Source: an uncultured Ruegeria sp.
GTDB lineage: Bacteria; Pseudomonadota; Alphaproteobacteria; Rhodobacterales; Rhodobacteraceae
Length of the DNA: 64,000 nucleotides
Direction: 5' to 3'
Assembly: GCF_947497005.1 (NCBI RefSeq)
Contig: NZ_CANMFF010000004.1
Location: 252,818 to 316,817 of the forward strand
Shown here: piece by piece, positions 47,248-51,890 of the stretch
Position numbering within the stretch: the first letter of the stretch is position 1
How the letters are laid out: every line of letters begins with the position of its first letter
Program-made: the position numbers and the translations under genes
The notes under the pieces: model-generated
What the model was told of the DNA's origin: nothing
The model's input: only the letters and a program-made list of their open reading frames with translations
Database searches by the model: none

Positions 47248-47396
47248 GAATCTGAGCCTTACCTGTCACCTCGCCCGTTGAAAAGAAGCCATTTTTGACG
47301 ACACATCAAATTTGCTTATCCGTTACCACAAATCTGCTGGATTGACGCTTGCCAAAAAGGCGATACGGTCCTTCGGGCGAAATTTCCGAGGTTTCA

Positions 47397-48632
47397 ATGC
47401 CCCAACCCGCCCGCCTGTTGAATCCGATCCTGATCGTCGGTTGCGTCATCATCACGGTCAGCTTCGCGGTGCGCGCCTCGTTTGGCGTATTCCAGATTCC
47501 GATCGCGGATGAGTTCGGCTGGTTGCGCACAGATTTCTCACTGGCAATAGCAATCCAAAACCTCGCCTGGGGCATCGGTCAACCGATCTTTGCCGCCATC
47601 GCCGAAAAGGTGGGTGACCGCCGGGCAATCGTCCTCGGCGCTCTGACCTATGCTGCTGGCATGGTGCTGTCTGCGTGGTCCGTCACGCCGTTCGAGCATC
47701 AGATGTATGCATGGCTGGTGGGTTTCGGCATCGCGGGAACAGGGTTCGGTGTCGTTTTGGCAGTGGTCGGACGCGCGTCATCCAACGAAAACCGGTCCAT
47801 GTCTCTGGCAATCGTTACGGCCGCGGGCAGTTTTGGCCAGGTTCTGGGCGCGCCAACAGCCGAGTGGTTGCTGTCTTTCCTGCCATGGCAGCAGGTCTTT
47901 ATCGTGTTTGCCGTGGCAATTCTTGCGCTTGTACTGACCTTGCCCTTCATGCGGGCTCCTCAGCCTGTCTCCAAGGCCGAGCTGGAAGAAAGTATGAGCG
48001 AGATTCTGGGTAAGGCGTTCCGCGACCCGTCCTACGCACTGATTTTTCTGGGTTTCTTCAGCTGCGGATATCAACTGGGCTTTATCACTGCGCATTTCCC
48101 TGCTTTTGTGACCGAGATGTGCGGCCCGATCCAACCTGGCGGTGTCCTGCATTCCATCGGAATCACCTCCACGTCGGCGCTTGGTGCTGTATCGATTTCC
48201 CTGATCGGTCTGGCCAACATCGGCGGCACGCTGTTGGCGGGCTGGGCGGGCAACCACTTCCCCAAGAAATACCTGCTGGCCGCAGTCTATACCGGTCGGA
48301 CGCTTGCTGCGGCATTGTTCATCATTTTCCCGATCACACCACTTTCGGTCATCGTGTTCTCGCTGGTGATGGGGTCGCTTTGGCTGGCCACTGTACCGCT
48401 GACCTCTGGCCTCGTCGCGCACCTGTACGGTCTGCGCTACATGGGAACGCTTTATGGCATCATCTTCTTCAGCCATCAGATCGGCAGTTTCCTTGGCGTC
48501 TGGCTGGGCGGGCGCATGTATGACCAATATGGCGACTACAGCATGGTGTGGTGGATCGGGGTCGCAATCGGAGCCTTCAGCGCCATCGTTCACCTTCCGA
48601 TCCGTGAGAATCGCTCAACAGTTCCCGCCTGA
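47397..48632 (+). CDS. MFS transporter
   Basis: About 12 TM; LAIAIQNLAWG, GFFSCGYQLGF, FFSHQIGSFLG. Start placed at ATG 47397. Confidence 0.88.
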   Translation: MPQPARLLNPILIVGCVIITVSFAVRASFGVFQIPIADEFGWLRTDFSLAIAIQNLAWGIGQPIFAAIAEKVGDRRAIVLGALTYAAGMVLSAWSVTPFEHQMYAWLVGFGIAGTGFGVVLAVVGRASSNENRSMSLAIVTAAGSFGQVLGAPTAEWLLSFLPWQQVFIVFAVAILALVLTLPFMRAPQPVSKAELEESMSEILGKAFRDPSYALIFLGFFSCGYQLGFITAHFPAFVTEMCGPIQPGGVLHSIGITSTSALGAVSISLIGLANIGGTLLAGWAGNHFPKKYLLAAVYTGRTLAAALFIIFPITPLSVIVFSLVMGSLWLATVPLTSGLVAHLYGLRYMGTLYGIIFFSHQIGSFLGVWLGGRMYDQYGDYSMVWWIGVAIGAFSAIVHLPIRENRSTVPA

Positions 48633-48680: not shown

Positions 48681-50720
48681 TTATCGCAGTTCGGCTTCGG
48701 TATTGCCGCCATCCACAGTCACGACATGCCCGGTGGTGCGTTCCATCAGCGCCAAAGCCACAAATGCACCTGCCACATGCGTGGCTTCGACTTCACGGCC
48801 CAACAGGTTGCCTGACATATATGTTTCCTCAGACACCCCGCGTGCAGCGGAGCGTTCTTGGATGAACCCATCTGTCAACAGACCAGACCGAATGCGGTCT
48901 GCATTCACTCCATTCACACGAATACCATGTTCGGCCAGTTCAAGCGTCAACTGGCGCAACAAAAATAGAGTAGCGGCTTTTGGCGTGCCATAAGCCCCCA
49001 TGTTGCGGCCTGGATTGATCGCCTGCTTGGAGATATTGAACAAAATCTGTCCGCCCCGGCCCTGTGCTTGCATCACCTGCGCAGCCCGCGTTGCAAAAGC
49101 CTTGTGCGCAAAGAAATTTAGCTCGAAAGCAGAGCGGAATTCCTCGTCGCCCAATTCCAGCAACGCGCCGGACGTCGCAGACCCGGCGTTGGATACCAGC
49201 ATATCAAGACCACCAAACCGGTGAATCGCGGCAGCGACCGCGGCATCTGCGGCGCCACTCTCGGTCACGTCGCAGGCAAATATCGAATGCCAAGGGCCAA
49301 GGGCCAGCTTTGCCTTTTCCAACGCCGTCTCATCCAGATCTACCAACGCAACGTTTGCCCCGGCATCCGCAAATGCCTTGGCGGTTGCCAGACCAATTGC
49401 ACCTGCTCCACCGGTAACCATCACTATCTTTCCCTGAAGCGGGGGCGGAGAGCTTTTGCCCAGCTTCGCCTGCTCAAGCGACCAGTATTCGCAATCGAAA
49501 CGGTCCTTTTCATTGGTCGGATAGAAGCCGCCCGCATCTTCGCCCACCGATCGAACCCGAAGGTTTTGTTCGGCGAGGTCCGCTGCTATCGAGGCAGTTT
49601 TTGCATTCGTACCAATGCCAAGGATCCCGACACCTTCGATCCAGGCGTGCTTGGGGTCTTGAGGCAGCAGTTTCTTGGGCTCATCAGCCTGCGGTGCCTG
49701 CCGTTCAAAATATGCTCGATAGTCGTCGGCAAATTCCTCGACTTTTGCCTTGATCTGAGACCGCCCCCCGGCCAAATCCGAAGTGCGCAAAACAAGTGGG
49801 CAGCCTTTTGTTCGCAAAACGTGGTCAGGCGACGCCATGCCTCGTTGCGCCAGGGTGTCAATGTCGGTCCGGTCAAAAAACCTCATGACGTCCGGCCCGT
49901 TTCGAAGATCGAAGACAGGCATCGGATCATCCTGCCGGGTCGCAACTTCGGCGATGACCCCGCGCAGAATTGGCAATATATTTAGACCTTGGGCACGATC
50001 ACGACGTCCAATCGTCGTTAGATCCTTCATACCAAAATAGGCAGCGACTTCGTTGGTATGCGCCACGATCCGGTCATAGCTTTCCTGCGCCGTCGAACCA
50101 AAGGTAAAGTGCCCATGCTGCAGCAGCAGAAGTCCTTCGACATTCGGGTTTTCGTCAAATACCTCTGCCGCTTTCTTGGCCAGCCCGAAGCCTGGCATGA
50201 TATAGGGCACGATGCCCAGCCGGTCGCCAAAAATCTCGCGGCAGATATCCTCGGCATTGGGCAGGTTGGCCAGCACCAGAAACGGGGTCGCATGTGTATG
50301 GTCGACATATTTATGCGGAAGAAACGCGTGTAGCAGTGTTTCCACAGAGGGGTTCGGCGAACCTGAGTCCAGCAGATTGGCACGCTGAACATTGACCATC
50401 TGGAAATCTGACAACTGCTCCAATGCACGCAGTTTCATCAAAGGATCGAGCCATACGCCCGGCAGGCCCGGTGCCTCAATGCTGTCCAGATCCCACCCGG
50501 ACCCTTTGACATGAAGAACGCGCTGCGGCTCGCCAAAGAGATCATTGCGTTCCAGCTTGACCGAGGTATTGCCCCCGCCATGCATCAGTAAGTCTGGATT
50601 CTGGCCGATGAGCCGGGAAGTATAGACACGCTCACCCAGTTCCTGATCTGCCGGATCAACACCAGCCTGATCCCGCCAATTCCGTGCCTCATCGGCCTTG
50701 TACCAGTTTTTAATCATCAT
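48681..50720 (-). CDS. Bifunctional class II aldolase / short-chain dehydrogenase (RhaD-like fusion)
   Basis: GGGNTSVK, PSVETLLHA...HTHA, QHGHF (Zn aldolase); VTGGAGAIG, SNAG, YGTPK (SDR). Confidence 0.9.
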   Translation of the reverse strand: MMIKNWYKADEARNWRDQAGVDPADQELGERVYTSRLIGQNPDLLMHGGGNTSVKLERNDLFGEPQRVLHVKGSGWDLDSIEAPGLPGVWLDPLMKLRALEQLSDFQMVNVQRANLLDSGSPNPSVETLLHAFLPHKYVDHTHATPFLVLANLPNAEDICREIFGDRLGIVPYIMPGFGLAKKAAEVFDENPNVEGLLLLQHGHFTFGSTAQESYDRIVAHTNEVAAYFGMKDLTTIGRRDRAQGLNILPILRGVIAEVATRQDDPMPVFDLRNGPDVMRFFDRTDIDTLAQRGMASPDHVLRTKGCPLVLRTSDLAGGRSQIKAKVEEFADDYRAYFERQAPQADEPKKLLPQDPKHAWIEGVGILGIGTNAKTASIAADLAEQNLRVRSVGEDAGGFYPTNEKDRFDCEYWSLEQAKLGKSSPPPLQGKIVMVTGGAGAIGLATAKAFADAGANVALVDLDETALEKAKLALGPWHSIFACDVTESGAADAAVAAAIHRFGGLDMLVSNAGSATSGALLELGDEEFRSAFELNFFAHKAFATRAAQVMQAQGRGGQILFNISKQAINPGRNMGAYGTPKAATLFLLRQLTLELAEHGIRVNGVNADRIRSGLLTDGFIQERSAARGVSEETYMSGNLLGREVEATHVAGAFVALALMERTTGHVVTVDGGNTEAELR

Positions 50721-50795
50721 TCATTCTCAGCAAGTTAAGCGAGCCTACGACCCATAAGATCGGTTGCACAATCGTTGACGGTGCTAAACAAAGTA

Positions 50796-51890
50796 TTAAT
50801 CATTCCGGTCCGGAAACAGTCCGGCAAGGCCTTCTGCAGAGGCCTCGCAAACGCCACGCTCGGTTATAAGTCCGGTGACCAGCCGGTTTGGTGTGACATC
50901 AAAGGCGGGATTGGCACCTTCCGTGCCATCTGGCGTCACGCGAACATCTGAGATGTTCCCCTGCCCATCAACACCCATGACATGGGTCACTTCCTTTGCA
51001 TCGCGTTCTTCGATCGGTATTTCTGCAACACCGTCGCGAACCGTCCAATCAATCGTAGGCGAGGGCAGGGCGACGTAAAACGGGACACCGTTGTCCCGTG
51101 CGGCCAGAGCTTTCAGATAGGTGCCGATTTTGTTGCAGACGTCACCTTGTGCCGTGGTTCGATCCGTTCCTGTAATGACCAGGTCAACCAACCCGTGCTG
51201 CATCAGGTGCCCCCCCGCATTGTCCACGATATAGCGATGGGGAATCCCGTGTTCGCCCAGCTCCCAGGAAGTCAACGCGCCCTGGTTGCGCGGCCTGGTC
51301 TCGTCTACCCATACGTGAAGCGGAATGCCCGCGTTAAGCGCGTGATACATGGGGCTTGTCGCCGTGCCCCAATCCACTGTCGCCAGCCACCCCGCGTTAC
51401 AATGGGTCAACAGACGCACCGGCTCGCCCTCTGGTTTTCGCGCAGCAATGTCCTTGATCAGCTCCAGCCCGTGACGGCCAATAGAGGCGTTGATTTCGAC
51501 ATCTTCGTCCGCAATCTCCTGCGCTAACGCCCAAGCGCGTTCAGCACGATCATCCGGAGCGAGTGACATCAGTGCTTCACGGCATCTGTCCAATGCCCAA
51601 CGTAGGTTGATTGCCGTGGGCCGGGTCGCATGCAGTACGTCATACGCACCGTCGAACGAAGCTTCGGAACTGTCACGAGACATCTGCTCGGCAATCCCAA
51701 ACGCAGCGGTTGCACCAATCAGTGGCGCACCCCTGACCCACATATCCCGTATAGCTGCTGCGAATTCATCCAGAGTTTTCAATGTCACAATCTGGAAATC
51801 ATGCGGCAACCATCGTTGATCAATGATCCGAACTTCACCTGCTGGTTTGTCCCACCATATCGACCGGTAATGGGTGCCTTGTACTTTCAT
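50796..51890 (-). CDS. mtnA: S-methyl-5-thioribose-1-phosphate isomerase
   Basis: [47 protein letters not shown]. Confidence 0.95.

Follow-up and report, generated by a model that had tools for sequence, protein, structure and literature searches.

An mtnA-linked class II aldolase/short-chain dehydrogenase fusion as a probable one-protein variant of the DHAP shunt in Ruegeria and other Alphaproteobacteria

Every cell that uses S-adenosylmethionine (SAM) must dispose of methylthioadenosine and 5'-deoxyadenosine. Here we describe a pair of genes that probably takes part in this task in an uncultured Ruegeria sp., found in a 64,000-nt stretch of contig NZ_CANMFF010000004.1 (hereafter the window; all coordinates are window positions unless another contig or locus is named) from an assembly rated 100% complete. 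The pair consists of mtnA and, directly behind it, a gene encoding a class II aldolase fused to a short-chain dehydrogenase/reductase (SDR), arranged as follows:

50796-51890, minus strand: mtnA, S-methyl-5-thioribose-1-phosphate isomerase, 364 aa (TIGR00512, NF004326, Pfam IF-2B)
50721-50795, minus strand: 75-bp spacer between mtnA (upstream) and the fusion gene, both genes on the same strand
48681-50720, minus strand: class II aldolase/SDR fusion gene, 679 aa (Pfam and NF006192)
50061-50651, minus strand: aldolase domain of the fusion, approximately residues 24-220 (Pfam PF00596, 67 bits)
49440-50060, minus strand: middle region of the fusion, approximately residues 221-427, largely helical and also present in RhaEW
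48681-49439, minus strand: SDR domain of the fusion, of the classical type, covering residues 428-679 and the stop codon (Pfam adh_short, adh_short_C2)
47349-48632, plus strand: MFS transporter gene, adjoining the fusion gene in convergent orientation

The open reading frame (ORF) positions and 75-bp gap given for mtnA and the fusion in the preliminary description of this DNA were exact, and profile scores confirm both identities. The mtnA product scores 412.7 bits against TIGR00512 (salvage_mtnA; cut-off 279) and 471 bits against NF004326, matches Pfam IF-2B, and its gene is preceded by a GGAGA motif 8 nt 5' of the ATG. The fusion passes the NCBIfam model NF006192 (PRK08324.1-6, bifunctional aldolase/short-chain dehydrogenase) with 821.2 bits over residues 4-679 (cut-off 639), and is a divergent member of this family, since most sampled members score more than 1000 bits; its best named match is a Ruegeria atlantica protein (91% identity). 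Pfam assigns Aldolase_II to residues 33-220 and adh_short to residues 431-612, with 125.7 bits for adh_short and 130.7 bits for adh_short_C2 in the SDR domain, and finds no family of its own for the middle region. No Rfam element or terminator was detected around the pair. The minus strand of the spacer carries no terminator-like or promoter-like site, and short same-strand gaps are conserved between the two genes in other genomes (see below), which together suggest that mtnA and the fusion are co-transcribed.

By their conserved motifs, both domains of the fusion appear to be catalytically intact. Conservation was read from two alignments, one of 71 sampled NF006192 members and a second (A1) of 33 sequences including the window's protein. 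In the aldolase domain the phosphate loops GGGNTS (residues 48-53) and KGSG (72-75), Glu127 and the metal triad of His141, His143 and His202 are found in at least 97% of the family, and most of these positions are invariant in A1. The same level of conservation is seen in the SDR domain for TGGAGAIG (436-443, the TGxxxGxG motif), Asp461, NAG (511-513), Ser564, Tyr577 and Lys581, with Asn511, Ser564 and the Tyr577-x3-Lys581 pair invariant in A1; Asp461 is the type of residue that marks a preference for NAD rather than NADP. An AlphaFold model of the fusion built on the alignment reached a predicted local distance difference test (pLDDT) score of 87.8 and a predicted template modelling score (pTM) of 0.88, and even the middle region was modelled confidently (pLDDT mostly above 85). 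In Foldseek searches the aldolase domain of the model superposed on the class II aldolase domain of PDB 3m4r (TM score 0.90 on the target, 36% identity), while the SDR domain matched classical SDRs with TM scores of 0.81-0.90, L-2-keto-3-deoxyfuconate 4-dehydrogenase being among its closest structural matches. No solved structure spanning the whole aldolase-middle-SDR architecture was found.

In the published dihydroxyacetone phosphate (DHAP) shunt, MtnP (or MtnN plus MtnK), MtnA and the aldolase Ald2 act in turn to give DHAP and either 2-methylthioacetaldehyde or acetaldehyde (PMC13474568, PMC5893883, PMC10986504). Searches of the whole Ruegeria genome recovered the upstream part of such a route, with the methylthioadenosine phosphorylase MtnP encoded on contig 14 (40980-41690; TIGR01694 298.8 bits, NF006492 529 bits), but no MtnK, no MtnN/Pfs above cut-off, no MtnB, MtnC or MtnD, no RuBisCO or RuBisCO-like protein, and no FucA/Ald2-type aldolase of about 220 aa. 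The MtnB model TIGR03328 did not match the fusion, and its best scores elsewhere in the genome were 36.9 and 26.6 bits (cut-off 137); likewise the best scores to the FucA-like model NF005984 were 33 and 26 bits, both from PRK07490-type proteins, as compared with 226 bits for a typical mtnA-adjacent aldolase. These two PRK07490-type paralogues, on contigs 30 and 18 (L080:6325-7113 and L081:5727-6488), are the sole stand-alone class II aldolases of the genome. Because MtnP and MtnA are present and the other candidates were not found genome-wide, the fusion is the only visible enzyme able to process MtnA's product. The absence of mtnB, mtnC, mtnD and rhamnose genes had been reported earlier for the window; for mtnB, mtnC and mtnD it extends to the whole genome, and rhamnose genes occur on a different contig; the accompanying statement on the lack of a transporter is loose, given the MFS transporter gene adjoining the fusion. 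As a side observation, the two PRK07490-type paralogues score 409 and 389 bits against NF005689, and each sits beside a divergent gene for a GcvA-like LysR regulator.

A synteny survey of mtnA with RhaD-like fusions, proposed in the preliminary description, was carried out on 401 evenly sampled Alphaproteobacteria genomes by profile search for NF006192 and MtnA, and revealed a conserved same-strand linkage. NF006192 scored above cut-off in 75 genomes and MtnA in 186, and mtnA was present in 70 of the 75 fusion-bearing genomes, as compared with 190 of the 401 overall. When the DNA flanking each of the 74 fusion genes from other genomes was fetched and searched with the proteins of the window's genome, mtnA was found in the flank of 35 (36 of 75 loci with the window included). 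In every case it precedes the fusion on the same strand, and 28 of the 35 gaps measure about 100 bp or less. Since the pairing recurs in 36 of 75 loci with order and strand constant, it lies far beyond chance. The gene mtnP was found beside the fusion in 27 loci, on the same strand in all and upstream in 26, and stood upstream of mtnA wherever both were present; 17 loci display the complete order mtnP-mtnA-fusion. In all, 46 of the 75 loci have mtnA and/or mtnP beside the fusion, always on the same strand, and these linked loci are spread across the whole NF006192 tree and some twenty taxonomic families.

A similar picture emerged closer to the window's own protein. When one genome per species was scanned, 80 named loci emerged, 46 of which, at 56% identity or more, form the window's subclade, predominantly Rhodobacterales plus some Hyphomicrobiales. 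Of these 46 loci, 39 have mtnA on the same strand no more than 2 kb upstream, and 2 of the other 7 end without upstream DNA. The methylthioribose kinase gene mtnK is also present in 24 of the 39 mtnA-linked loci, often with an intervening gene for a SorC-type regulator and with an ABC transporter close by. The window's protein falls in a clade of 10 members (SH-like approximate likelihood ratio test, SH-aLRT, 100), all 10 of which are mtnA-linked, and the arrangement yaiI-mtnA-fusion-MFS is common to the window and two Ruegeria relatives.

The fusion also takes the place in gene order that Ald2-like proteins hold elsewhere. With the MtnB model, true MtnB was recovered from only 17 of the 401 genomes, and the search also brought up, below its threshold, numerous FucA-like class II aldolases (220-260 aa), whose adjacency to mtnA was judged from coordinates in a manual tally. 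Of some 90 mtnA genes listed for fusion-less genomes, about half are directly followed by such a FucA-like aldolase (in a few the aldolase precedes mtnA); in G093, from the same family as Ruegeria, mtnA is followed by a 223-aa protein scoring 226 bits against NF005984. By comparison, none of the fusion-bearing genomes whose positions were listed has a FucA-like aldolase adjacent to mtnA. The fusion shows no BLASTP similarity to the Ald2-like protein of G093 (E 1.1), and thus would represent displacement by a very distant superfamily member rather than a domain added to Ald2. We also considered an in-place replacement of Ald2 at a single genomic site and rejected it, as the flanks of the G093 locus are not syntenic with the window; the operon position is equivalent, the site is not.

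These features closely parallel the DHAP shunt of Rhodospirillum rubrum, Rhodopseudomonas palustris, extraintestinal Escherichia coli and Bacillus thuringiensis (Ald2/DrdA, EC 4.1.2.62): the upstream enzymes are alike (MtnP here, MtnK in many relatives, and MtnA), the cleaving enzyme occupies an equivalent operon position, and the expected products are DHAP and a C2 aldehyde. The differences lie in the cleaving enzyme itself, which in the published shunt is a FucA-like Ald2 of about 220 aa and here is a 679-aa RhaEW-type protein with a dehydrogenase of its own, and in what follows, since in the published shunt a separate enzyme processes the aldehyde, and an alcohol is formed at the end. Published descriptions argue indirectly that the R. 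palustris Ald2 (RPA4655) is a stand-alone protein and not a fusion, since the authors present it as homologous to the small Ald2 of R. rubrum and in 2026 still called the aldehyde reductase unknown; were RPA4655 itself a fusion, our finding would already be known. A more remote parallel is offered by Tetrahymena MtnBD and Arabidopsis DEP1, where the domain that acts on 5-methylthioribulose-1-phosphate has the class II aldolase fold and is likewise joined to the enzyme of the following step. In these proteins, however, a dehydratase is fused to a dioxygenase or an enolase-phosphatase and methionine is regenerated, whereas the fusion described here carries an SDR, and the remainder of the methionine pathway was not found.

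The closest characterized relative in architecture is RhaEW (Bacillus subtilis YuxG and Chloroflexus aurantiacus Caur_2283), which converts rhamnulose-1-phosphate to DHAP and L-lactate with NAD+, is inactive with NADH and forms no DHAP without NAD+ (Rodionova et al. 2013, PMC3870299). RhaEW and the window's fusion are collinear over their full length, each being built from aldolase, helical middle and SDR parts, and they share the His triad, the SDR catalytic residues and the NAD-type Asp. By analogy the fusion probably shares the logic of RhaEW, namely cleavage of a 1-phospho-ketose coupled to oxidation of the resulting aldehyde. The two nevertheless belong to different families (NF006192 versus NF006189/TIGR02632), and when compared with the RhaEW of its own genome the fusion has Glu127 in place of Asp and an unlike SDR substrate loop (residues 562-571). 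Their genomic settings also differ, as RhaEW orthologues all reside within rhamnose utilisation loci (PMC3870299), whereas the window's fusion does not, and the fusion is linked to mtnA, mtnP and mtnK and was never seen in rha loci.

Taken together, the gene identities, the motifs, the operon-like linkage, the Ald2-equivalent position and the lack of any alternative enzyme among those sought in the genome form the basis on which we read this system as a variant of the DHAP shunt for the breakdown of methylthioadenosine and 5'-deoxyadenosine, in which the fusion acts in place of Ald2 and also converts the aldehyde; we put the probability of this reading at about 0.72. MtnP, encoded on the other contig, would phosphorolyse the nucleoside, and MtnA would isomerise the ribose-1-phosphate to 5-methylthioribulose-1-phosphate or, by analogy with the published shunt, to 5-deoxyribulose-1-phosphate. 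Taking the role of the stand-alone FucA-like Ald2/DrdA, the fusion would use its metal-dependent class II aldolase domain to cleave this ribulose-1-phosphate to DHAP and 2-(methylthio)acetaldehyde or acetaldehyde, and then its NAD-type SDR domain to convert the reactive aldehyde without setting it free. The substrates of the fusion, the order of its two reactions, its redox direction and its co-transcription with mtnA are all parts of the scheme that we infer. As RhaEW oxidises with NAD+ and is inactive with NADH, and Asp461 is conserved in the fusion, an acid is favoured over a volatile alcohol, so that oxidation to (methylthio)acetate (from methylthioadenosine) or acetate (from 5'-deoxyadenosine) with formation of NADH appears somewhat more likely than reduction. 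A compact one-enzyme DHAP shunt downstream of MtnA had been suggested in the preliminary description, and this part of the proposal has gained strong support from the family-wide linkage to mtnA, mtnP and mtnK, the Ald2-equivalent position, the separate RhaEW and the lack of another enzyme for MtnA's product among those sought in the genome. Its proposed volatile organosulfur end product (methylthioethanol or methanethiol) is not supported, since the behaviour of RhaEW and the NAD-type Asp461 point instead to non-volatile (methylthio)acetate or acetate. Although tentative, and somewhat short of an even chance in our estimation, it is attractive to think that NF006192 as a whole might constitute a widespread 'oxidative' DHAP shunt in about one fifth of the sampled Alphaproteobacteria, including marine Rhodobacterales, whereby one polypeptide would yield DHAP, (methylthio)acetate or acetate, and NADH with no free aldehyde, maybe through SDR-first oxidation followed by hydrolytic C-C cleavage.

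Several observations weigh against the reading as a DHAP-shunt variant. Of the family members, 29 of 75 (about 39%) are not adjacent to mtnA or mtnP, and six of the sampled genomes possess a true MtnB as well as the fusion. Among the recurrent flanking ORFs obtained by clustering, no conserved neighbour indicates the fate of an acid product, and it is the alcohol 2-methylthioethanol, not an acid, that is the end product of the published DHAP shunts (PMC5893883, PMC10986504). Furthermore, four nested members of the window's subclade, from Hoeflea, Nitratireductor and two metagenome-assembled genomes (MAGs) (L086, L091, L099 and L098), sit in a cluster without mtnA, which comprises an FGGY kinase, a PfkB kinase, a SorC regulator, a 2-hydroxyacid dehydrogenase and a small class II aldolase whose gene overlaps the start of the fusion, the fusion copy itself being 67-70% identical; since these members occupy sugar-type clusters, the specificity of the fusion may be broader or shifted in some lineages. 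Such cases feed an alternative in which the fusion would cleave a different (deoxy)ketose phosphate, its place behind mtnA reflecting co-regulation or history, and one MAG in fact holds both types of copy. We consider this improbable, as mtnA and the fusion keep their relative order and shared strand across many families, no other enzyme for MtnA's product was found in the Ruegeria genome, and in the trees the mtnA-less loci are small offshoots nested within the mtnA-linked clade, which we read as later changes of context. Least probable is that the fusion is an ordinary RhaEW (rhamnulose-1-phosphate aldolase/L-lactaldehyde dehydrogenase), even though homologues are labelled 'rhamnose utilization protein RhaD' by the Joint Genome Institute (JGI) and the fusion shares its two-domain architecture with the RhaEW of its own genome, aligning with it end to end (31% identity, E 7e-88). 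It falls below the cut-offs of both rhamnose models (TIGR02632, RhaD_aldol-ADH, 422.8 bits versus 567.75; NF006189, 393.9 versus 634), and the trees part the two families by approximately 3 substitutions per site. The genome's second fusion, a 713-aa protein encoded on contig 13, is a true RhaEW (NF006189 1212 bits, TIGR02632 1052 bits), and resides in a complete rhamnose locus (L078:1612-12272), being preceded by a sugar kinase, a rhamnose ABC transporter (two permeases, an ATPase and a RhaS-type binding protein) and a DeoR regulator, and followed by L-rhamnose isomerase (rhaA). No rhamnose genes were found within 8 kb of the window's fusion, nor beside any of the 154 related loci inspected. 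Rhamnose use is therefore explained without the window's fusion, given that a true RhaEW with only 31% identity and a long tree branch between the two occupies its own rhamnose locus.

The remaining alternatives retain MtnA's product as the substrate and differ in the chemistry performed on it. One involves the same fused module and departs from our preferred reading in redox direction only, the SDR reducing the aldehyde with NAD(P)H to 2-(methylthio)ethanol or ethanol, in line with the published shunts and with the volatile sulfur product of the preliminary description. Here it can be argued that 2-methylthioethanol is the product observed in R. rubrum, R. palustris and E. coli, where the reductase is unidentified (PMC5893883, PMC10986504, PMC13474568), and that SDRs are usually alcohol/ketone oxidoreductases, with the top structural matches being of the same kind. 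Yet RhaEW, the sole tested relative, made the acid and was inactive with NADH, the NAD-type Asp461 is conserved, and no known consumer of methylthioethanol was found in this aerobic genome among those sought (methylthio-alkane reductase was not searched for), and so we regard reduction as unlikely, if well worth keeping in mind. A more radical proposal is that the SDR acts first, oxidising the C4 hydroxyl of the ribulose-1-phosphate, with hydrolytic C-C cleavage by the aldolase-like domain then giving DHAP and the acid but no free aldehyde, or else that the N-terminal domain is an MtnB-like dehydratase. A dehydrogenase-first mechanism has room because RhaEW forms DHAP only with NAD+: neither DHAP nor lactate was produced without it (PMC3870299), which is odd for an independent aldolase step. 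SDRs, moreover, normally act on secondary alcohols, and L-2-keto-3-deoxyfuconate 4-dehydrogenase is one of the closest structural matches, while MtnB is established to have a class II aldolase fold and metal site. Against this, the SDR-first order is pure inference, the structural similarity of SDRs is generic, and the authors of the RhaEW study read its reaction as an aldolase step followed by an aldehyde dehydrogenase; a dehydratase route would in addition need MtnC and MtnD, neither of which was found, and the fusion does not match the MtnB model. We would give such other chemistries little credence.

In full-text literature searches we found no paper linking an NF006192-type fusion to SAM by-product metabolism, and the main DHAP-shunt reviews and primary papers contain no mention of a fused form. 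The aldehyde-reducing enzyme of the shunt was called unknown in a 2026 review (PMC13474568), which makes the fusion a candidate for the step that handles 2-methylthioacetaldehyde. Its standing as the only enzyme found for MtnA's product in the Ruegeria genome plausibly extends to many relatives that carry the fusion beside mtnA, mtnP or mtnK. The predicted acid end product, in place of a volatile alcohol, would change what such marine bacteria release from methylthioadenosine sulfur: if the 'oxidative' shunt is true, this sulfur would end in a non-volatile acid instead of methylthioethanol or methanethiol. Finally, assignment of the fusion to this pathway would correct the common mislabel under which JGI lists its homologues.

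The genes around the pair have unrelated housekeeping functions, namely yaiI, sthA, fghA and a membrane transport gene on the upstream side, and the convergent MFS transporter gene, zapE, folC and accD on the downstream side. We considered the MFS transporter as a possible part of the system and rejected it, as its conservation is confined to close relatives within Ruegeria (L092, L097) plus 1 of the 74 class-wide loci. Across the class, what recurs in the flanks is the housekeeping set of the mtnP region (cytochrome b, cytochrome c1, YchF, Pth and L25). Just past the fusion in mtnP-mtnA-fusion loci we observed a gene of the dienelactone hydrolase family together with a 289-aa Glyoxalase_3/VOC gene (L071:3323-4887 and about 10-16 others), and a zinc-type alcohol dehydrogenase gene recurs in 8 loci (e.g. 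L041:8045-9082).

Individual genomes provided some further observations. In Roseovarius aestuarii a gene for an AMP-binding acyl-CoA ligase lies directly upstream of mtnA and the fusion on the same strand (L087:2200-3717 / L093), and such a neighbour recurs in one further locus only (L107, opposite strand); a ligase in this place would suit an acid product, but is a hint at most. The Rhizobiaceae MAG PL25b_bin.41 (L098, L102) carries two copies of the fusion, one after mtnK-mtnA and one in the FGGY/2-hydroxyacid dehydrogenase context, and in the Hoeflea sp. (L086:1-12037) the mtnA-less cluster continues with an SBP56-family protein (the methanethiol oxidase family), a ferredoxin, ribulose-phosphate 3-epimerase and a DeoC-like aldolase. 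An apparent mtnA-aldolase-SDR triple fusion (G275, a 1056-aa open frame) was discarded, because mtnA lies in a different frame and the long frame is an artefact of high GC content. In another genome (G164), a fusion of the NF006194 subfamily (L084:9430-11541, 831 bits) is situated 3 kb from mtnA in convergent orientation, so that linkage to mtnA may extend past NF006192. Nor is the pairing limited to Alphaproteobacteria, since in an uncultured Thiotrichaceae MAG, which is gammaproteobacterial, the fusion lies 315 bp downstream of mtnA (L171:3904-5928).

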